A DNA stretch of 64,000 nucleotides from Escherichia coli (GTDB lineage Bacteria; Pseudomonadota; Gammaproteobacteria; Enterobacterales; Enterobacteriaceae). A program made the position numbers and the translations under genes. Positions 21,141 through 63,064 of the stretch are shown here, piece by piece. A model generated the notes under the pieces. That model did not search any database, was not told where the DNA came from, and was given only the letters and a program-made list of their open reading frames with translations. Where the stretch lies: the NCBI RefSeq assembly GCF_030013595.1, contig NZ_CP122768.1. One strand, given 5' to 3'. Position 1 is the first letter of the stretch. The number at the start of each line of letters is the position of its first letter.

Positions 21141-21251
21141 TGCGAGCAGCATTCCTGATTTTAAACGTGAACGCCGCTGGAAGAATTATCAGGTATAGAA
21201 TGGCGTTGGGTGCTTGAGGCTGTCTGGCGTTAAGCATTCGCGAGGTTCCAG

Positions 21252-21356
21252 ATGGACAAAAGCCCCAGGCGATATTTCTATCAACCTGAGGCCAGCGTTC
21301 GAACCCAAACAATTCGAATGTTAGTCTCTTCTTTGCAGGGAGGCAAGGCATGCTGA
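21252..21356 (+). CDS. Mok-like leader ORF overlapping the hok start (candidate translational-coupling frame)
   Basis: 34-codon [37 protein letters not shown] ending in TGA that overlaps the hok ATG; architecture typical of hok/sok loci. Confidence 0.3.
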
Positions 21357-21502
21357 CAAAATATGCCCTTGTGGCAATCATAGTGCTGTGTTTTACAGTA
21401 CTGGGATTCACGCTGATGGTAGGCGACTCGTTGTGTGAGTTGAGTATCAGAGAACGTGGTATGGAGTTTAAGGCAGTTCTCGCTTACGAATCGAAGAAGT
21501 AG
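21350..21502 (+). CDS. Hok/Gef-family type I toxin (50 aa)
   Basis: [50 protein letters not shown]: single TM helix, conserved SLCE and C-terminal AxxAYE motif of Hok family; SD gcagggagg upstream; resembles the HokE-type sequence as I recall it. Confidence 0.75.
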
Positions 21503-33044: not shown

Positions 33045-34037
33045 ATGAGTCAGAATACGCTGAAAGTTCATGATTTAAATGAAGATGCGGAATTTGATGA
33101 GAACGGAGTTGAGGTTTTTGACGAAAAGGCCTTAGTAGAAGAGGAACCCAGTGATAACGATTTGGCCGAAGAGGAACTGTTATCGCAGGGAGCCACACAG
33201 CGTGTGTTGGACGCGACTCAGCTTTACCTTGGTGAGATTGGTTATTCACCACTGTTAACGGCCGAAGAAGAAGTTTATTTTGCGCGTCGCGCACTGCGTG
33301 GAGATGTTGCCTCCCGCCGCCGGATGATCGAGAGTAACTTGCGTCTGGTGGTAAAAATTGCCCGCCGTTATGGCAATCGTGGTCTGGCGTTGCTGGACCT
33401 GATCGAAGAGGGCAACCTGGGGCTGATCCGCGCGGTAGAGAAGTTTGACCCGGAACGTGGTTTCCGCTTCTCAACATACGCAACCTGGTGGATTCGCCAG
33501 ACGATTGAACGGGCGATTATGAACCAAACCCGTACTATTCGTTTGCCTATTCACATCGTAAAGGAGCTGAACGTTTACCTGCGAACCGCACGCGAGTTGT
33601 CCCATAAACTGGACCACGAACCAAGTGCGGAAGAGATCGCAGAGCAACTGGATAAGCCAGTTGATGACGTCAGCCGTATGCTTCGTCTTAACGAGCGCAT
33701 TACCTCGGTAGACACCCCGCTGGGTGGTGATTCCGAAAAAGCGTTGCTGGACATCCTGGCCGATGAAAAAGAGAACGGTCCGGAAGATACCACGCAAGAT
33801 GACGATATGAAGCAGAGCATCGTCAAATGGCTGTTCGAGCTGAACGCCAAACAGCGTGAAGTACTGGCACGTCGATTCGGTTTGCTGGGGTACGAAGCGG
33901 CAACACTGGAAGATGTAGGTCGTGAAATTGGCCTCACCCGTGAACGTGTTCGCCAGATTCAGGTTGAAGGCCTGCGCCGTTTGCGCGAAATCCTGCAAAC
34001 GCAGGGGCTGAATATCGAAGCGCTGTTCCGCGAGTAA
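33045..34037 (+). CDS. rpoS: RNA polymerase sigma factor RpoS (sigma-38), full length; codon 33 = GAG (Glu)
   Basis: 330-aa [38 protein letters not shown]...; start at ATG 33045. Confidence 0.97.
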
Positions 34038-34052
34038 GTAAGCATCTGTCAG

Positions 34053-34089
34053 AAAGGCCAGTCTCAAGCGAGGCTGGCCTTTTTCTTTT
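34053..34089 (+). terminator. rpoS rho-independent terminator
   Basis: aggccag...ctggcct stem followed by ttttctttt. Confidence 0.65.
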
Positions 34090-34157
34090 GGTTGGGAAGT
34101 CGGTGTGTTTTGTCGCCTGGATAAGACTCGTCAGCGTCCTACCCGGCAATCAGCATC

Positions 34158-34565
34158 CTATTTGCTCATCATCTTGCGCACCAACTGCATAAACAGCTCC
34201 TTCTCTTCTGCACTCAAACGCCCCAAAAATTCCTCATCCACACTGTCACCAATGGGGATCGCCGCAGCAAGTACCTTTTCTCCTTCGGCAGTCAGCCAGA
34301 CAAAGCGACGCCGCTTGTCAGCGGCGTCATGTTCACGTCTGACTAAGCCACGATTTTCCATTCTTGCCAACATTTCTGCCAGCGTTGCTTTGGTGCTGAC
34401 TGCTGCTTCTATCAGTGCCACCTGTTCGATACCAGGCTTATCAGCAATGGCGCGCATCACCGCGTACTGTGGTTTGGTGAGGTCAGGTAACTCGTGCTGC
34501 CAGCGAGCCGTGTGCTGCTGAAAAAGCTGTCGTAACTGATGGAACGCTTTATTTCGTAACGCCAT
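34158..34565 (-). CDS. MarR/SlyA-family transcriptional regulator
   Basis: 135-aa from complement ATG 34565 (MALRNKAFHQLRQLF...), winged-helix region; divergent from decarboxylase operon. Confidence 0.75.
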   Translation of the reverse strand: MALRNKAFHQLRQLFQQHTARWQHELPDLTKPQYAVMRAIADKPGIEQVALIEAAVSTKATLAEMLARMENRGLVRREHDAADKRRRFVWLTAEGEKVLAAAIPIGDSVDEEFLGRLSAEEKELFMQLVRKMMSK

Positions 34566-34711
34566 GTAAACTCCGGGCAAACTATCTGCCGCTATCATAG
34601 CGGTTTTTCAGTGACGAAGAAGATGTTGTTACTTTTCAGTGCTTGCCGCGATGAAAACAGAGGCGTATTTTAATAATGACGTTCGTATACGAACAATTAA
34701 GAGAATAAACA

Positions 34712-35305
34712 ATGAGACTGATCGTCGGGATGACAGGGGCTACCGGTGCGCCTCTTGGGGTGGCATTACTGCAAGCGCTGCGGGAGATGCCGAATGTCGA
34801 GACTCATCTGGTGATGTCGAAGTGGGCGAAAACCACTATTGAACTGGAAACGCCTTACAGCGCTCGCGATGTTGCCGCCCTCGCAGACTTCAACCATAAC
34901 CCGGCGGATCAGGCGGCGACTATCTCTTCCGGCTCCTTTCGTACCGACGGCATGATCGTTATTCCATGCAGTATGAAAACGCTCGCCGGTATCCGCGCTG
35001 GTTACGCCGATGGTCTCGTGGGGCGCGCGGCGGACGTCGTGCTCAAAGAAGGCCGCAAACTGGTGCTGGTGCCGCGTGAAATGCCGCTTAGCACAATCCA
35101 TCTCGAAAATATGCTCGCACTTTCGCGCATGGGCGTGGCGATGGTGCCGCCGATGCCTGCCTTTTATAACCATCCCGAAACGGTAGATGACATTGTCCAC
35201 CACGTGGTAGCCCGCGTGCTGGATCAATTTGGCCTCGAACATCCTCACGCCAGGCGCTGGCAAGGATTGCCGCAGGCCCGGAATTTTTCTCAGGAGAATG
35301 AATAA
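34712..35305 (+). CDS. ecdB: UbiX-like flavin prenyltransferase (phenolic acid decarboxylase subunit B, Pad1-like)
   Basis: 197-aa MRLIVGMTGATGAPLGVALLQAL..., UbiX/Pad1 flavoprotein signature. Confidence 0.85.
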   Translation: MRLIVGMTGATGAPLGVALLQALREMPNVETHLVMSKWAKTTIELETPYSARDVAALADFNHNPADQAATISSGSFRTDGMIVIPCSMKTLAGIRAGYADGLVGRAADVVLKEGRKLVLVPREMPLSTIHLENMLALSRMGVAMVPPMPAFYNHPETVDDIVHHVVARVLDQFGLEHPHARRWQGLPQARNFSQENE

Positions 35306-36732
35306 TGGCATTTGATGATTTACGCAGCTTTTTACAGGCGCTTGATGACCACGGCCAGTTACTGAAAATCAGCGAAGAGGTGAACGCGGAACCGGATCTG
35401 GCAGCCGCTGCCAACGCCACCGGACGTATCGGCGATGGTGCACCGGCGCTGTGGTTTGACAATATTCGCGGCTTTATCGATGCCCGCGTGGCAATGAATA
35501 CCATCGGTTCCTGGCAGAACCACGCGATTTCCCTCGGCCTGCCGCCAAACACCCCGGTTAAAAAGCAGATTGATGAGTTTATCCGCCGCTGGGATAACTT
35601 CCCCATTACCCCGGAGCGCCGCGCCAATCCAGCCTGGGCGCAGAACACCGTCGATGGCGACGAGATCAACCTGTTCGATATTCTGCCGCTGTTTCGTTTA
35701 AACGACGGTGATGGCGGTTTCTATCTCGATAAAGCGTGCGTGGTTTCCCGCGATCCGCTCGACCCGGATAACTTCGGCAAGCAGAACGTCGGCATCTACC
35801 GCATGGAAGTGAAGGGCAAACGTAAGCTCGGCCTGCAACCGGTGCCGATGCACGATATCGCTCTGCATCTGCATAAAGCGGAAGAACGCGGTGAAGATCT
35901 GCCGATTGCCATCACCCTGGGTAACGATCCGATCATCACCCTGATGGGCGCCACGCCGCTGAAATACGATCAGTCTGAGTACGAAATGGCGGGCGCGCTG
36001 CGCGAAAGCCCGTACCCGATCGCCACCGCCCCGCTGACCGGTTTTGATGTGCCGTGGGGCTCGGAAGTGATCCTCGAAGGGGTTATCGAAAGTCGTAAAC
36101 GTGAGATTGAAGGGCCGTTCGGTGAGTTTACCGGTCACTACTCCGGCGGGCGTAACATGACCGTGGTGCGTATCGATAAAGTCTCTTACCGTACCAAACC
36201 GATTTTCGAATCGCTCTATCTTGGTATGCCGTGGACCGAAATCGACTACCTGATGGGGCCTGCCACCTGCGTGCCGCTGTATCAGCAACTGAAAGCCGAG
36301 TTCCCGGAAGTGCAGGCGGTAAACGCCATGTACACCCACGGCCTGTTGGCGATTATCTCCACCAAAAAACGCTACGGCGGCTTTGCCCGCGCGGTGGGCC
36401 TGCGTGCAATGACCACGCCGCACGGTCTGGGCTACGTGAAGATGGTGATTATGGTCGATGAAGACGTTGATCCGTTCAACCTGCCGCAGGTGATGTGGGC
36501 GCTCTCCTCGAAAGTGAACCCGGCAGGCGACCTGGTGCAGTTGCCAAATATGTCCGTGCTGGAACTCGACCCTGGCTCAAGCCCGGCGGGGATCACCGAC
36601 AAGCTGATTATCGACGCCACCACGCCTGTCGCCCCGGACAACCGTGGTCACTACAGCCAGCCGGTGGTGGATTTACCGGAAACCAAAGCCTGGGCTGAAA
36701 AACTGACTGCTATGCTGGCCGCACGTAAATAA
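35305..36732 (+). CDS. ecdC: UbiD-family (de)carboxylase (phenolic acid decarboxylase subunit C)
   Basis: 475-aa ORF; TAATG overlap with upstream gene. Confidence 0.85.
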   Translation: MAFDDLRSFLQALDDHGQLLKISEEVNAEPDLAAAANATGRIGDGAPALWFDNIRGFIDARVAMNTIGSWQNHAISLGLPPNTPVKKQIDEFIRRWDNFPITPERRANPAWAQNTVDGDEINLFDILPLFRLNDGDGGFYLDKACVVSRDPLDPDNFGKQNVGIYRMEVKGKRKLGLQPVPMHDIALHLHKAEERGEDLPIAITLGNDPIITLMGATPLKYDQSEYEMAGALRESPYPIATAPLTGFDVPWGSEVILEGVIESRKREIEGPFGEFTGHYSGGRNMTVVRIDKVSYRTKPIFESLYLGMPWTEIDYLMGPATCVPLYQQLKAEFPEVQAVNAMYTHGLLAIISTKKRYGGFARAVGLRAMTTPHGLGYVKMVIMVDEDVDPFNLPQVMWALSSKVNPAGDLVQLPNMSVLELDPGSSPAGITDKLIIDATTPVAPDNRGHYSQPVVDLPETKAWAEKLTAMLAARK

Positions 36733-36742
36733 GGAGAACAAG

Positions 36743-36979
36743 ATGATTTGTCCACGTTGTGCCGATGAACAGATTGAAGTGATGGCGAAATCGCCGGTGA
36801 AAGATGTCTGGACGGTCTACCAGTGCCAGCATTGCCTTTATACCTGGCGCGATACCGAACCGCTACGCCGCACTAGCCGCGAACATTATCCCGAAGCGTT
36901 CCGCATGACGCAGAAAGATATTGATGACGCGCCGATGGTGCCGAGCATCCCGCCGCTGCTGGCGGAAGGTAAGCGCTAA
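36743..36979 (+). CDS. ecdD: Small Cys-rich subunit D of phenolic acid decarboxylase
   Basis: 78-aa MICPRCADEQIEVMAKSPVKDVWTVYQCQHCLYTW..., CxxC...CxxC; 10 bp after ecdC. Confidence 0.7.
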   Translation: MICPRCADEQIEVMAKSPVKDVWTVYQCQHCLYTWRDTEPLRRTSREHYPEAFRMTQKDIDDAPMVPSIPPLLAEGKR

Positions 36980-36981
36980 AT

Positions 36982-37013
36982 AAAAGGTCCGATGCCCATC
37001 GGACCTTTTTATT
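36982..37013. terminator. Bidirectional rho-independent terminator between ecdD and ygbN
   Basis: aaaa-ggtccgatg-ccc-catcggacc-tttttatt. Confidence 0.7.
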
Positions 37014-37017
37014 AAGG

Positions 37018-38382
37018 TCAAATTACCGCCCATACGCACCAGGTAATTAAGAATCCGGTAAAACCGAGAATGGTCGTTAACACTGTCCAGGTTTTCAGAC
37101 CGTCTGCTACCGACAACCCCAGATATTTGGTCACAATCCAGAACCCTGAGTCATTAATATGTGACGCGCCAAGCCCACCAAAGCAGGCTGCCAGCGTCAC
37201 CAATACGCACTGAATCGGATTCAATCCCATCACCGCTTCTGAGAGTAACCCGCCGGTTGTCAGGATTGCTACGGTTGCTGACCCCTGCGATGCACGCAGC
37301 GCCAGTGAAATAATAAATGCGGCTGGTAACAGAGGCAGGTCAATCATTTGTAGCATGTTGGCAAGGGCTTTGCCGACGCCCGATTCCACCAGCACTTTGC
37401 CAAATACCCCTCCAGCACCAGTAACCAAAATCACTACCGCCGCAGTGGGAAGGGCTGAGCCCATAATGTCGCTGGTGTGTTGTAAGCTCCAGCCGCGACG
37501 TAAAGCCAATAACCAGAATGCCAGTACCAGCGCAATCATTAGAGCTACCATTGGTGAGCCGATCAGCTGTAGCGTACCAAGCAGGGGATGCGAAGGCGGC
37601 ATCAGTGTTGCGGAAACCGTACCCGCCATGATAATCGCGATAGGAATAACAATTAGCGAGGTGACCAGCGCGACGCCCGGTGGATTTATTTTATCGCTTA
37701 ATTTTGTCGCGCCTTCCTCACTGGCCGGAGCCAGTTGCATCTGTTCCAGTACTTCCACCGACATCGCATATTGGCGCTTATTGATTATTTTCGCTGCAAA
37801 GTAGCCAACAATCCCTACTGGAATAGAAATCGCAATACCGATGATGGTTAGCCAGCCGATGTCTGCGTGGAGTAACCCCGCTGCGGCGACAGGGCCTGGA
37901 TGCGGCGGTACCGCCACATGAACAGTTAGCATGATTCCAGCGACAGGCAGGCCAAATTTGAGTGGCGATATTTTGGCAACCTTGGCAAAACCGTAAATGA
38001 TTGGCGCAAGAATAATAAAGCCGACATCAAAGAAGACGGGAATACCGAGGAAGAACGCTGCCAGAGTCAGCGCAGCGATAGTTCGTTTGTCACCTAACTT
38101 GCGACTGAAATAATTAGCCAGTGACTCTGCACCACCAGAGTGTTCGATCATACGCCCCAGCATAGCGCCCAGACCAATAATAATAGTGACGGAACCAAGC
38201 ACACCGCCCATCCCGGCGATCATCACTTTACCCACTTCGCCCGCCGGTATACCCGCCGCAAGTGCGACTAACAGGCTGACGAGGAGCAGAGCAACGAATG
38301 GTTGTACCTTTGCCTTGATGACCAGCAGCAACAGCATGATTACGCCAGTTAACGCAATGCATAACAATGTAATTGTGGACAT
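37018..38382 (-). CDS. ygbN: GntP-family permease
   Basis: 454-aa polytopic ORF MSTITLLCIALTGVIMLLLLVIKAKVQPF... Confidence 0.87.
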   Translation of the reverse strand: MSTITLLCIALTGVIMLLLLVIKAKVQPFVALLLVSLLVALAAGIPAGEVGKVMIAGMGGVLGSVTIIIGLGAMLGRMIEHSGGAESLANYFSRKLGDKRTIAALTLAAFFLGIPVFFDVGFIILAPIIYGFAKVAKISPLKFGLPVAGIMLTVHVAVPPHPGPVAAAGLLHADIGWLTIIGIAISIPVGIVGYFAAKIINKRQYAMSVEVLEQMQLAPASEEGATKLSDKINPPGVALVTSLIVIPIAIIMAGTVSATLMPPSHPLLGTLQLIGSPMVALMIALVLAFWLLALRRGWSLQHTSDIMGSALPTAAVVILVTGAGGVFGKVLVESGVGKALANMLQMIDLPLLPAAFIISLALRASQGSATVAILTTGGLLSEAVMGLNPIQCVLVTLAACFGGLGASHINDSGFWIVTKYLGLSVADGLKTWTVLTTILGFTGFLITWCVWAVI

Positions 38383-39890: not shown

Positions 39891-41149
39891 GATAAAAACT
39901 CTCTTTGGGCTCGTGAAAAAAAGGCGTCATCACCGAAGTTGCCAGATTTAAGGGCGAGTGAGACAGGCTTATCCAGTGCGTTTACCCACGGCACGCCGGG
40001 GGAAATGGTTGGGCCAATATGAAACCCTTTTATTCCCAGGCTCTGTGTGACTACGCCGGAGGTCTCACCGCCTGCGACAATAAAGCGTGTTACGCCTTCC
40101 GCGGCTAACCGCGTCGCTAGTTGAGAAAACAGTGTTTCTACTGCCTGACTGGCTTTTTGTGCACCGTATTGCTGTTGAATTGCTGCCAATGCGTCAGTGC
40201 TGGCGGTGGCAAAAACCAGTGGAGCAAGTACACTTTCCTGGCCCAGAACCCACTCTGCCAGTTCGTGTGCATAAGCGGCCAGAGTTTCAATTGAGAGGCA
40301 GCGTGCCACATCAACTTCACGGGCTGGTGCAATTTGACGGTAATGTGCTACCTGGCGGTTGGTCATTTGAGAGCATGAACCGGAGAGCACTACGCCGCGC
40401 CCAGCGAGCGGATGCCCTGCTTTGCGAGCCTGGTTACCGTTTTCTTGCGCCCACTGCCGGGCAAGGCCAATCGCCAGACCAGAACCGCCCGTTACCAGTG
40501 GGGCATCGCGCAAGGCTTCTCCCTGAATTTCCAGATGGTGTTCGGTCAGCGCATCAAGCACCGCGTAGCGGTAGCCCTCTTGCTGTAAGCGAGCCAGCTC
40601 TTGACGAACGGCATCCACACCTTGTTCGAAAACATGTGCCGAAACGACGCCGCAGCGCCCTGTGGATTGCGCTTCAACCAGACGGGGAAGATAGCTGTCG
40701 GTCATGGGATTTACCGGGTGATGGCGCATCCCGGATTCGGCCAGCAGTTGATTCATTACGAACAAATACCCCTGATAAACCGTACGTCCGTTGACCGGCA
40801 GGGCCGGAGAGAAGACCGTAAACGGCGTGTCGAGAGCATCCATTAATGCATCGGTAACCGGGCCGATATTACCTTTCGCCGTACTGTCGAAAGTAGAGCA
40901 GTATTTGAAATAGATCTGTTTGCAACCTTGCTGTTGCAACCAGCTCAGAGCCGCCAGCGATTGCTGTGTGGCTTCAACCACCGGACAGGAACGCGTTTTC
41001 AGGCTGATCACCAGTGCGTCGATTGCTTCCGGCATTTTACTTGTTGGAACACCGTTAATTTGTACCGTTGGTAGACCGTTTTCCACCAGAAAACTGGCGA
41101 TATCCGTCGCGCCGGTAAAATCATCGGCGATAACGCCAATCTTGATCAT
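39887..41149 (-). CDS. ygbK: Four-carbon acid sugar kinase (3-oxo-tetronate kinase OtnK)
   Basis: 420-aa ORF MIKIGVIADDFTGATDIASFLVENG... Confidence 0.85.
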   Translation of the reverse strand: MIKIGVIADDFTGATDIASFLVENGLPTVQINGVPTSKMPEAIDALVISLKTRSCPVVEATQQSLAALSWLQQQGCKQIYFKYCSTFDSTAKGNIGPVTDALMDALDTPFTVFSPALPVNGRTVYQGYLFVMNQLLAESGMRHHPVNPMTDSYLPRLVEAQSTGRCGVVSAHVFEQGVDAVRQELARLQQEGYRYAVLDALTEHHLEIQGEALRDAPLVTGGSGLAIGLARQWAQENGNQARKAGHPLAGRGVVLSGSCSQMTNRQVAHYRQIAPAREVDVARCLSIETLAAYAHELAEWVLGQESVLAPLVFATASTDALAAIQQQYGAQKASQAVETLFSQLATRLAAEGVTRFIVAGGETSGVVTQSLGIKGFHIGPTISPGVPWVNALDKPVSLALKSGNFGDDAFFSRAQREFLS

Positions 41150-47060: not shown

Positions 47061-47489
47061 TTACGCTTTGGTGGCAATCAGGATGGCTGATGCTTTGATC
47101 AATGCAATAACGCGCGAGCCAGTGGTGAGTTTCATTTCATCCTGACTTTCATTTGTTACCACTGCCACAATTTCAAAACCCGCATCCGTTTTGATATGGA
47201 CAGTGGCGTTCACTGCGCCTTCGGTGATTGTCGACACGCTGCCAGCAAACTGGTTGCGAGCAGAGAATTTCAGTCCACAGTCTTCCGTTGCCAGCGTGAC
47301 CCACGGGGCTTTAATCAGGGCAATCGCTTCTTTCCCTTTTGCCAGACCCAGAGCCTGCTGGCTGCTGTGAGTCACAATTGCCACCAGCTTTGCACCACCT
47401 GCCAGCGTCAGTTCTACTTCATCATTCACAGCGCCCATTGCTACTGCGCTAACTGTTCCGGTTAATTGATTTCTTGCTGAAACTGCCAT
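47061..47489 (-). CDS. Molybdenum-pterin/molybdate-binding protein with two tandem Mop (TOBE) domains
   Basis: 142-aa MAVSARNQLTGTVSAV...IALIKAPWVTLATE and SARNQFAGSVSTI...IALIKASAILIATK internal duplication; AAGGAGG SD upstream of complement ATG 47489. Confidence 0.7.
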   Translation of the reverse strand: MAVSARNQLTGTVSAVAMGAVNDEVELTLAGGAKLVAIVTHSSQQALGLAKGKEAIALIKAPWVTLATEDCGLKFSARNQFAGSVSTITEGAVNATVHIKTDAGFEIVAVVTNESQDEMKLTTGSRVIALIKASAILIATKA

Positions 47490-62336: not shown

Positions 62337-62648
62337 ATGCACATCATTTCTAAAGCGCCATTTGAAGAGTGTGCGCGCAAATATCCTAACGACGCTCTGG
62401 CTCTACACTCATTGTATCGGGTTATTAAGGAAACGGATTTTTCTACACCAGAAGAAATGCGAACGGCGTTTCCCAACCTCGACAATTTTAGATATCGCAA
62501 CAAATGGTACGTTCTGGATGTCGGCGGGAACAATCTTAGGGTTATTGCCTACATAAACTTTGTTAATAAGCGGTTCTTTGTGAAGCACATAACGAATCAC
62601 GCAGAGTATGACAAACTGACACGTTACTACAGAGAGAACAAAGAATGA
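62337..62648 (+). CDS. HigB-like toxin (RelE/ParE superfamily mRNA interferase)
   Basis: 103-aa MHIISKAPFEECARKYPNDALALHSLYRVIKETDFSTPEEMRTAFPNLDNFRYRNKWYVLDVGGNNLRVIAYINFVNKRFFVKHITNHAEYDKL...; shares the FP.LDNF...VGGN.LRV...H.EYD pattern of E. coli HigB as I recall it. Confidence 0.75.
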   Translation: MHIISKAPFEECARKYPNDALALHSLYRVIKETDFSTPEEMRTAFPNLDNFRYRNKWYVLDVGGNNLRVIAYINFVNKRFFVKHITNHAEYDKLTRYYRENKE

Positions 62649-63064
62649 CTGCTAATGCTGCACGCGCTGTTAAAGCAACAAGAGAACTGGTCAATGCAGT
62701 CCCCTTTCTGGGAGGTAGTGACTCAGAAGATGATTATCGTGAAGCACTGGAACTGGTCGAATATTTGATTGAAGAAGATGACACCAATCCACTTATCGAC
62801 TTTCTGGCGAGCCGCATTGCAGAGTATGAAAGCAACAACGAAAAGTTTGCAGAGTTCGACAAAGCCGTTGCTGCAATGCCGGTTGGCGTGGCGTTACTTC
62901 GTACGCTGATTGATCAACATAATCTGACCTACGCGGATTTGAAGAACGAAATCGGCTCTAAATCCCTGGTCAGTCAGATTTTGTCTGGGCAACGATCCCT
63001 GACGATATCCCACATTAAGGCACTTTCAGCCCGATTTGGTGTTAAGCCGGAATGGTTTCTTTGA
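62645..63064 (+). CDS. HigA-like antitoxin (XRE-family HTH at C-terminus)
   Basis: 139-aa ORF overlapping toxin stop by 4 bp; C-terminal HTH LTYADLKNEIGSKSLVSQILSGQRSLTISHIKALSARFGV; N-terminal APFLGG...ALELVEYL like HigA. Confidence 0.75.
   Translation: MTANAARAVKATRELVNAVPFLGGSDSEDDYREALELVEYLIEEDDTNPLIDFLASRIAEYESNNEKFAEFDKAVAAMPVGVALLRTLIDQHNLTYADLKNEIGSKSLVSQILSGQRSLTISHIKALSARFGVKPEWFL

Follow-up and report, generated by a model that had tools for sequence, protein, structure and literature searches.

The interval between mutS and rpoS is, as a first-pass annotation of this DNA had stated, a known polymorphic region, and in the 64,000-nt stretch of Escherichia coli DNA analyzed here (the window) a regulatory gene and three enzyme genes lie between rpoS and ygbN. 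This locus raises the question of which reaction the encoded proteins serve, and of whether the genes were put there as an accessory island or are old neighbours of rpoS. In the reading that we favour, with a probability of about 0.88, the cassette serves inducible 4-hydroxybenzoate/phenolic acid decarboxylation, is an old neighbour of rpoS that has become a presence/absence polymorphism in E. coli, and was deleted in K-12. Published accounts already cover the segment and its polymorphism, the regulator together with its ligand and operator, and the enzyme family; the identities of the genes, the operator and terminators, the breakpoints, and the distribution and synteny given below were observed in the present analysis.

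Layout of the interval between rpoS and ygbN

The MarR regulator gene divergent from an operon of UbiX-like, UbiD-like and small Cys-rich genes (34712..36979), which had been described between rpoS and ygbN, was recovered by the open reading frames together with the Pfam and NCBIfam matches. The features of the locus are as follows.

33045..34037, plus strand: rpoS, the left core flank, intact (330 codons)
34051..34093, plus strand: intrinsic terminator of rpoS, 15-bp stem and T-tract (scan and folding)
34084..36978, no strand: segment variable relative to K-12, 2,895 bp (in K-12-type genomes 8 bp, CTGTGCAC)
34111..34152, minus strand: imperfect REP-like hairpin just 3' of the hosA stop (-21.6 kcal/mol, z -2.1)
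34158..34565, minus strand: hosA, MarR-family repressor of 135 aa (Pfam MarR, PDB 8aga, RefSeq start)
34643..34671, plus strand: candidate sigma-70 promoter of vdcBCD, TTGCCG, 17-nt spacer, TATTTT (read from the sequence)
34681..34694, no strand: HosA operator GTTCGTATACGAAC, a perfect palindrome of 14 bp whose end lies 17 bp 5' of the vdcB start codon
34712..35305, plus strand: vdcB (ecdB/pad1/kpdB), UbiX-family flavin prenyltransferase for prFMN synthesis (NCBIfam, Pfam, PDB)
35305..36732, plus strand: vdcC (ecdC/yclC/kpdC), UbiD-family prFMN-dependent decarboxylase (NCBIfam, PDB)
36743..36979, plus strand: vdcD (ecdD/kpdD), 78-aa zinc-ribbon activator subunit (NCBIfam, PDB, four Cys)
36977..37014, bidirectional: hairpin terminator common to vdcD (plus) and ygbN (minus), core sequence also present in K-12
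37018..38382, minus strand: ygbN (o454), GntP-family transporter, the right core flank

The breakpoints of the variable segment were obtained by base-by-base comparison with the K-12 derivative J53. On the left, the rpoS translation is 100% identical to RefSeq-annotated rpoS regions, and the rpoS terminator (34051..34084 plus T-tract; -24.9 kcal/mol, z -4.5) is the same in K-12 as far as window position 34083. On the right, the hairpin at 36977..37014 folds with -17.7 kcal/mol (z -4.4) on one strand and -17.3 kcal/mol (z -4.0) on the other. Neither terminator belongs to the variable segment, both being core sequence. Of the bounds given in the first-pass annotation (34090..37017), the left one fell within a few bases of the breakpoint, and the right one took in the common terminator; the two hairpins that it regarded as delimiting the segment are real (z -4.0 to -4.5), but both belong to the core and are also found in K-12. 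Its statement that K-12 lacks the genes at this site holds, the junction of K-12-type genomes being 8 bp as against 2,895 bp. The sequence of the hairpin at 34111..34152 is highly variable among E. coli alleles and could conceivably form the hosA 3' end or a terminator. No Rfam match was obtained at the gathering threshold within the variable segment.

The regulator, its operator and the decarboxylase

The longest open reading frame of hosA (34158..34598, 146 aa) has an over-extended N-terminus, and the true start at 34565 was set by the RefSeq annotation and by the alignment to PDB 8aga, which begins at residue 12. The product matches Pfam MarR, a winged-helix domain (45.5 bits, 7e-12, above the curated cut-off), and PDB 8aga, "Transcriptional regulator HosA" (4e-83), and 132 of its 135 residues are identical to the crystallised HosA of strain E2348/69, the three substitutions being C-terminal. 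HosA binds 4-hydroxybenzoate (Kd 4.74 uM), which in EMSA releases it from DNA, and in an in vivo reporter 4-hydroxybenzoate gave a specific induction of up to 38-fold, the response being highly specific against 4-methylbenzoate, 4-aminobenzoate, benzoate and 3-hydroxybenzoate, the four analogues in the assay. The EMSA with phenolic ligands that had been proposed as a check on this locus is therefore already in print, with HosA structures deposited as well. According to Roy & Ranjan 2016, in so far as their findings are relayed in 10.1101/2024.04.24.590444, HosA is a repressor and autorepressor with a binding site downstream of the start of transcription. Flagellar motility in EPEC has also been tied to HosA, from which its control may extend beyond the vdcBCD operon.

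The palindromic operator lies in the intergenic region from which hosA and the decarboxylase operon diverge, and a direct pattern search found GTTCGTATACGAAC once in the window. Its surroundings match the published HosA binding-site probes (PMC6261655 supplement), with a difference of one base from the UMN026 probe, in which AAC stands just upstream of the palindrome where the window has GAC. Each of the 76 loci keeps the operator with at most two mismatches, for the most part at one position approximately 620-640 bp 5' of vdcC. A promoter scan of 33800..37300 returned no site at threshold, and the candidate at 34643..34671, which agrees with the consensus at 8 of 12 positions, falls below that threshold; it may nevertheless be the vdcBCD promoter, as its position fits the HosA site reported 3' of the transcription start.

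The three enzyme genes follow one another on the plus strand in the order B-C-D; the vdcC start overlaps the vdcB stop by one base, and 10 bp separate vdcC from vdcD. VdcB was matched to the NCBIfam VdcB model (312.8 bits, cut-off 290), Pfam Flavoprotein (1.5e-44) and PDB 1sbz, the Pad1 of O157:H7 (9.6e-129). VdcC scored 788.9 bits against the NCBIfam VdcC model (cut-off 650), matched PDB 7ae4_A at 3.5e-160 across residues 3-471, and is under very strong purifying selection (dN/dS 0.014-0.022). VdcD scored 121.2 bits against the NCBIfam VdcD model (cut-off 30) and matched PDB 7ae4_a (ShdD) at 3.4e-11; its Cys3, Cys6, Cys28 and Cys31, arranged in two CxxC knuckles, occupy the positions of the Zn ligands C3, C6, C28 and C31 of ShVdcD. 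In VdcC, two motifs, NVGIYR (residue 161) and EGPFGE (residue 269), align with identical residues in ShVdcC. From knowledge of Fdc1 together with PMC8379154, we take these motifs to carry the UbiD "ERE" triad, EGPFGE with both Glu. The zinc ribbon and activator role of the VdcD subunit have been described (PMC8379154). Judged by these matches, the operon is a VdcBCD/EcdBCD/KpdBCD-type non-oxidative hydroxyarylic acid decarboxylase.

For the mechanism proposed here, the ligand response, the repression and the chemistry of the orthologous enzymes were taken from the literature, and we infer where the promoter lies and which substrates the enzyme encoded here accepts. When no ligand is present, a HosA dimer would sit on 34681..34694, just 3' of the vdcB promoter, and block RNA polymerase; HosA would shut down its own gene too. 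Binding of 4-hydroxybenzoate would take HosA off the DNA, and vdcB, vdcC and vdcD could then be transcribed as a single unit ending at the hairpin common with ygbN. VdcB may prenylate reduced FMN to form prFMN, with which a VdcC hexamer, kept active by the zinc-ribbon VdcD, would reversibly convert 4-hydroxybenzoate to phenol and CO2. VdcBCD would probably also convert vanillate to guaiacol, and enzymes of this type are oxygen-sensitive. With regard to the orthologues, a lysate of E. coli with kpdBCD of Klebsiella pneumoniae is reported to turn 4-hydroxybenzoate into phenol (Lupa 2005), and prFMN- and VdcD-dependent decarboxylation of 4-hydroxybenzoate or vanillate was reported for ShVdcCD and BsVdcCD (PMC8379154). 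The earlier description of the substrate as unproven is thus outdated, since the release of HosA by 4-hydroxybenzoate has been published and kpdBCD makes phenol. By analogy with the orthologues and with the HosA ligand, we infer that VdcBCD of E. coli would decarboxylate 4-hydroxybenzoate.

It might be supposed that the operon is a spare UbiX/UbiD pair of the ubiquinone pathway, acting on 3-octaprenyl-4-hydroxybenzoate and not on free phenolic acids: the Pfam domain names are UbiD and Flavoprotein, the structures of E. coli UbiD and UbiX were matched at 1e-46 and 5e-45, and VdcB makes the cofactor of UbiX, so that cross-supply of prFMN to UbiD would be plausible. However, the NCBIfam UbiD equivalog gave only 173.5 bits (cut-off 788), as against the score with the VdcC model, and the dedicated VdcD, needed in the VdcCD subfamily, is present; as HosA moreover senses free 4-hydroxybenzoate and the soluble VdcCD hexamer comes closest in structure, a ubiquinone-pathway function is very improbable. 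Equally improbable is a protocatechuate or gallate decarboxylase of the AroY/LpdC type in place of an enzyme for 4-hydroxybenzoate or vanillate, given that AroY-type structures (5o3m, 5ny5) were matched at only 1e-24 to 1e-27, far from the value for 7ae4, and that the HosA reporter is highly specific for 4-hydroxybenzoate against the four analogues named above, protocatechuate being none of them. This identity has in its favour the common UbiD superfamily and the presence of PcaV among the nearest non-HosA structural relatives of HosA. PcaV is a protocatechuate-responsive regulator.

If the decarboxylase acts on 4-hydroxybenzoate as proposed, the strain is predicted to turn this compound, from plant phenolics and paraben breakdown, into phenol at low oxygen, and such phenol formation would be relevant to the production of phenol and phenyl sulfate in the gut. 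For three of the four cassette proteins, structures have been solved at or near identity.

Descent of the cassette in E. coli and related genera

Among 5,426 complete genomes of E. coli, 2,380 carry the cassette and more than half are without it; the empty K-12 junction occurs in 1,948 genomes, and the cassette is missing in BL21 as well as in K-12. The alleles are diverse: a whole-segment match of at least 99% was obtained in only 2 of the 2,380 carriers, and in the closest genome, HCP5S3_I2, the segment is identical, with the window as a whole not collinear. The window allele is a recombinant: its hosA comes closest to that of E2348/69, and its vdcB-vdcC agrees at 98-100%, per 200-nt segment compared, with the GN02461 allele. 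Within E. coli, the cassette is 4-6 times as diverse as its flanks (dS of 0.11-0.24 among surviving alleles vs 0-0.04 in the flanks), from which allele import and recombination have clearly been added to vertical descent. The cassette alleles have TCTTTTGGT 3' of the rpoS terminator in common, which K-12 does not have. In a search for the parent of the K-12 deletion, the 8-bp filler CTGTGCAC was absent inside the window cassette and the CFT073-type cassette.

Among Enterobacteriaceae, 51 of 80 loci, belonging to approximately 17 named genera, have the four genes next to rpoS. In comparisons with Citrobacter and Salmonella, dS was 0.9-1.1 for vdcC and 0.8-1.0 for the flanking nlpD, and relative to other genera hosA, vdcB and vdcC have diverged to the same depth as nlpD; this comparison yielded no close foreign donor for hosA or vdcB. 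Only vdcC-vdcD shows 92-95% nucleotide identity with Pseudocitrobacter, and this pair has clearly been exchanged between Escherichia and Pseudocitrobacter. No integrase, transposase or other mobility gene and no tRNA target was found in 34084..36978, and no direct or inverted repeats were found at 34084 and 36978. Insertion of the transposon or integrase type was ruled out on account of the missing boundary repeats.

Shigella is phylogenetically E. coli, and therefore a 97.6% identity to S. dysenteriae is no evidence of transfer. The first-pass annotation spoke of an accessory island inserted between rpoS and ygbN, and a horizontally acquired, pathogen-associated island is also the claim of a 2024 HosA preprint (10.1101/2024.04.24.590444), which argues for transfer from Shigella. 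For such an origin speak the absence from K-12, BL21 and the empty-junction genomes, the mosaic alleles within E. coli, the vdcC-vdcD exchange, and a G+C content of 0.55-0.59 in vdcB-vdcC vs 0.50-0.53 in the flanks, a small shift like other core stretches of the profile (0.588 at 40200-40800). The adjacency to rpoS across genera, the divergence matching nlpD, the lack of a close donor for hosA and vdcB, and ends free of mobility genes, tRNA and repeats argue against it, as do the carriers from pig faeces, lake water, soil and food, which are not pathogens alone; we therefore consider an acquired island improbable. The cassette was probably not inserted here, and since it is syntenic with rpoS over approximately 17 genera, has a dS like that of nlpD, and is free of repeats and mobility genes, the K-12 state is most likely a deletion by which K-12 lost the cassette. 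Synteny and divergence are the grounds for regarding it as ancestral, and the cross-genus synteny corrects statements of a recent acquisition of hosA by pathogens.

A further step, which we put forward tentatively and hold to be rather unlikely, is that the cassette is an ancient presence/absence polymorphism held for a long time in E. coli by selection and not by drift. This idea derives from the vdcC dN/dS of approximately 0.015 and the 96-97% identity of its product to that of most other genera in the family, and from the allele dS far above that of the flanks in a species of which more than half of the genomes lack the cassette. If it were true, "horizontally acquired, pathogen-specific", as the cassette is repeatedly labelled in the literature, would be a misnomer, and there could be a functional significance to its tight linkage with the rpoS 3' end.

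Comparison with known systems

The nearest counterpart is the 2.9-kb mutS-rpoS segment of O157:H7/EPEC, which has the same four genes (slyA-like hosA, pad1/ecdB, yclC/ecdC and ecdD), the same order and the same left junction, with protein identities between O157:H7 and the window of 194/197 for VdcB, 472/475 for VdcC and 78/78 for VdcD. The likeness to O157:H7-type strains seen in the first-pass annotation extends, on alignment, to homology of the segment but not to the configuration: in O157:H7, ygbI-ygbN has been lost and the cassette is joined directly to pphB-mutS, whereas the window keeps ygbN-ygbI. A layout with ygbN kept is the "pattern IV" of Ewers et al., with E2348/69 as reference, and the window locus is of this long form, which types the mutS-rpoS configuration of the strain. 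The structurally known HosA (8aga and six further PDB entries) resembles that of the window in its divergent arrangement and 14-bp palindromic operator.

Orthologues likewise located near rpoS are KpdBCD of Klebsiella pneumoniae and the Enterobacter cloacae enzyme that decarboxylates 4-hydroxybenzoate. Window VdcC has 97% protein identity to that of Klebsiella oxytoca and K. michiganensis and 96-97% across Klebsiella and Enterobacter species, whereas HosA of these loci is only 71-81% identical to window HosA, and most of them have approximately 2.6 kb of extra sequence between rpoS and hosA. Sedimentibacter hydroxybenzoicus ShdCD and Bacillus subtilis BsdBCD represent the same B-C-D gene set with clearly diverged sequences and another regulator; VdcC aligns over its full length with S. 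hydroxybenzoicus VdcCD (ShdCD, PDB 7AE4/5/7), and VdcD has the same four Zn-binding Cys, with a six-residue insertion relative to ShdD. The housekeeping UbiX and UbiD of E. coli belong to the same two protein families and share the prFMN chemistry of VdcB and VdcC, but they are distant paralogues that work without a VdcD partner on a membrane-bound, prenylated substrate.

Layout of the rpoS–ygbN interval

The cassette, consisting of the regulatory gene hosA and the divergent decarboxylase operon vdcBCD, is surrounded in the window by the E. coli truD-surE-pcm-nlpD-rpoS region and is arranged as follows.

Features of the interval and its borders
33045..34037, plus strand: rpoS, intact, with its stop at 34037
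34051..34084: rpoS terminator hairpin, followed by a T-tract
34158..34565, minus strand: hosA, MarR-family gene
146 bp between hosA and vdcB: intergenic region
34712..35305, plus strand: vdcB (UbiX, VdcB model; Pfam/NCBIfam)
35305..36732, plus strand: vdcC (UbiD, VdcC model; Pfam/NCBIfam)
36743..36979, plus strand: vdcD (VdcD model; NCBIfam)
36977..37014: hairpin between vdcD and ygbN
37018..38382, minus strand: ygbN

The first-pass annotation had placed a MarR regulator and a UbiX/UbiD/small-subunit operon between rpoS and ygbN, and this observation was confirmed as real and correctly placed because the gene families were recovered (Pfam, NCBIfam) and both hairpins were far more stable in folding than shuffled controls. 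The scores of VdcB, VdcC, and VdcD against their NCBIfam models all exceed the curated cut-offs, and the same genes of other strains are named non-oxidative hydroxyarylic acid decarboxylases subunit B/C/D in RefSeq. PDB entry 8aga, "Transcriptional regulator HosA", aligns with the regulator (4e-83) from regulator residue 12 on, and the true hosA start is therefore 34565; HosA is identical to that of the EPEC strain E2348/69 at 132 of 135 residues. VdcB matches PDB 1sbz (9.6e-129), Pad1 of E. coli O157:H7, and shares 194 of 197 residues with the O157:H7 protein. VdcC residues 3-471 align with ShVdcC (PDB 7ae4_A, 3.5e-160), and the NVGIYR and EGPFGE motifs are kept. The structural-database match of VdcD is ShdD, and its cysteines at positions 3, 6, 28, and 31 are the zinc ligands described for ShVdcD (PMC8379154).

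Base-by-base alignment with the K-12 derivative J53 showed that the window is the same through the rpoS terminator to 34083 and again identical from 36979 onward, J53 having 8 bp (CTGTGCAC) in place of 2,895 bp; K-12 thus lacks these genes here, as had been stated. Because identity extends to 34083 and resumes at 36979, the rpoS and right-hand terminators are core sequence common to the window and K-12, the latter serving ygbN in K-12 and both ygbN and vdcD in the window. A search for direct or inverted repeats at the segment ends found none, and there are no mobility genes among the genes of the segment (34084..36978). The rpoS gene is a pseudogene by annotation in J53 (internal stop) and in O157:H7 AC-3 (frameshift).

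Elsewhere in the window, the cysH-iap interval, which in K-12 holds the type I-E cas operon, carries a hok/sok toxin-antitoxin locus.

Features of the cysH-iap interval
21208..21365: sok RNA (Rfam, 112 bits)
21350..21502: Hok ORF, 50 aa
21532..22812, minus strand: adjoining transposase-like ORF, 426 aa

This ~1.3-kb element is missing from HCP5S3_I2, in other respects the closest genome. A CRISPR array at 4323..4716, with ~6 copies of the E. coli type I-E repeat GAGTTCCCCGCGCCAGCGGGGATAAACCG at a period of 61, differs from that of the closest genome in length and surrounding sequence, and no cas genes are annotated in that genome's stretch matching the array. Two small accessory features, at 47061..47489 and 62337..63064, are known from the annotation of a near-identical genome: one is a TOBE-domain gene between ygbA and fhlA, likely to be marker c3292 of Ewers et al. 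2014, and the other pairs a toxin gene of the HigB family with a neighbouring HTH-protein gene between hycI and ascB.

Operator, HosA response and enzyme chemistry

A perfect 14-bp palindrome, GTTCGTATACGAAC, occupies 34681..34694, with its right end 17 bp short of the vdcB start codon; a pattern search showed it to be unique in the window, and its flanks match the HosA binding-site oligonucleotides of PMC6261655. All of the 76 related loci that were examined keep this operator with at most two mismatches, and in the majority it precedes vdcC by ~620-640 bp. The MarR EMSA with a phenolic ligand that the first-pass annotation had proposed is already published: 4-hydroxybenzoate releases HosA from DNA, with a Kd of 4.74 uM (PMC6261655), and induction in vivo reaches up to 38-fold and is highly specific (PMC13355054). 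As cited in a 2024 preprint on HosA, Roy & Ranjan 2016 reported that HosA represses itself and the operon, that 4-HBA induces, and that transcription starts upstream of the HosA site, which implies roadblock action. A weak candidate promoter, TTGCCG-17 nt-TATTTT (34643..34671), would fit the roadblock geometry; a promoter scan around the cassette did not call it. In 12 comparison loci (L043, L052, L053, L062, L064, L069, L073, L074, L076, L078, L082, and L083), hosA is directly upstream of vdcC-vdcD and vdcB is absent, and the operator persists 37-180 bp ahead of vdcC; prFMN in these organisms presumably comes from the housekeeping UbiX.

For VdcCD, PMC8379154 describes a prFMN cofactor made by a UbiX-type enzyme, an oxygen-sensitive holoenzyme, and 4-hydroxybenzoate and vanillate among the substrates tested. 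With Klebsiella pneumoniae kpdBCD in E. coli, the lysate makes phenol from 4-hydroxybenzoate (Lupa 2005, as given in a citing paper), and the Klebsiella and Enterobacter proteins from a one-genome-per-species scan share 96-97% identity with the window VdcC. Based on the VdcCD work, the KpdBCD activity, and this identity, the locus is most probably an inducible switch that converts 4-hydroxybenzoate to phenol, the chemistry being carried over from orthologues.

Origin of the cassette and of the K-12 junction

The scan of one genome per species yielded 80 loci encoding VdcC relatives.

Arrangement of the 80 loci relative to rpoS
36/80: rpoS convergent with hosA, gap 67-445 bp, as in the window
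10/80: order unchanged, with an additional 0.6-2.7 kb separating rpoS from hosA (Klebsiella, Enterobacter, Leclercia, Lelliottia, Pluralibacter)
5/80: cassette inverted, vdcD facing rpoS (Salmonella enterica subsp. arizonae and diarizonae; Phytobacter)
29/80: no rpoS within the flank examined (short contigs or other families: Pantoea, Erwinia, Rahnella, Vibrio, others)

The extra sequence is ~2.6 kb in loci L016, L018, L020, L022, L023, L039, L040, L045, and L061 (Klebsiella, Enterobacter, Leclercia, Lelliottia). In the inverted cassettes (L015, L025, L027, L047, L050), vdcD and rpoS converge, 53-77 bp apart; arizonae, diarizonae, and Phytobacter keep the neighbourhood, with hosA-vdcBCD flipped relative to rpoS.

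With Pseudocitrobacter and one E. coli-like MAG contig excluded, nucleotide identity to other genera is ~70-77% for hosA, 73-84% for vdcB, and 82-88% for vdcC, and in the flanks 74-84% for nlpD and 81-93% for rpoS. The dS of vdcC against Citrobacter, Salmonella, Klebsiella, and Enterobacter (0.85-1.09) is about the same as that of nlpD (0.82-0.98), and its dN/dS is 0.014-0.022. In addition, TCTTTTGGT follows the rpoS terminator in both cassette alleles (window and CFT073-type) and is absent from K-12. Synteny, identity, dS, and the shared TCTTTTGGT, taken together, indicate that the cassette is most likely an old resident beside rpoS and that the K-12 junction is a deletion; "inserted", the term of the first-pass annotation, is thus better replaced by retained here and deleted in K-12. 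Herbelin et al. are said to have concluded in 2000 that the cassette is old and K-12 deleted. The 2024 HosA preprint calls the cassette horizontally acquired on the basis of its identity to Shigella, a proposal that is not supported, since the adjacency to rpoS across genera, the nlpD-like dS, and the lack of boundary repeats speak against it.

Recombination and loss have left traces at particular loci. In Pseudocitrobacter (L005, L008, L009; ~6001..7680), vdcC-vdcD is 92-95% identical to the window at the nucleotide level (dS ~0.2), whereas identity drops to 69-82% in vdcB, hosA, and nlpD (vdcB dS 1.3); this indicates recombination between genera, the breakpoint lying close to the vdcB/vdcC junction. 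In E. coli 06_3044 (L088, 4068..6077), hosA is truncated by an IS91-family transposase, vdcBCD, ygbN, ygbM, and otnC are missing, and otnK is the next annotated core gene; this arrangement appears to be an independent, IS-mediated route to cassette loss.

Locus states and alleles in E. coli

States of the locus in 5,426 complete E. coli genomes
2,380/5,426: cassette present, coverage at least 80%
1,601 of the 2,380 carriers: cassette and vdcD-ygbN junction as in the window
~779 of the 2,380 carriers, by subtraction: cassette without the window-type vdcD-ygbN junction (O157-like or other)
1,948/5,426: empty K-12 junction
1,040/5,426: 2.1-kb flavodoxin and MBL-hydrolase cassette, CFT073 type

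That cassette presence and absence form a long-lived, selectively maintained polymorphism seems rather unlikely. The CFT073-type cassette (L003), which encodes a flavodoxin-family protein and an MBL-fold hydrolase, occupies the same site as hosA-vdcBCD, and at its right breakpoint the ygbN terminator and the final codons of ygbN are replaced as well. With 1,042 of 1,043 copies matching the query copy at 99% identity or more, this cassette may be young or clonal.

Only 2 of the 2,380 hosA-vdcBCD carriers match the window segment at 99% or more; in the others the segment is 94-97% identical, despite flanks of ~99-100% identity. A sliding comparison resolves the window allele into a mosaic: its hosA part comes closest to E2348/69, vdcB and vdcC follow the allele of strain GN02461 with 98-100% identity in each 200-nt window, and at the vdcD end the closer alleles are once more those of E2348/69 and O157. 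Among E. coli alleles the cassette has a dS of 0.11-0.24, versus 0-0.04 in nlpD and rpoS; the mutS-rpoS region has been described as mosaic and recombinogenic, and the cassette diversity fits this description.

The locus is already described, its regulator, ligand, operator, and enzyme family all being known, and the interpretation in the first-pass annotation holds in part. In O157:H7 the cassette is joined straight to pphB without ygbI-ygbN, whereas the window retains ygbN, and the earlier label "O157:H7-type" therefore gives way to the long, E2348/69-type form. The E. coli locus forms match patterns I-IV as described by Ewers et al. 2014, with E2348/69 as the reference for pattern IV, and the window is pattern IV.
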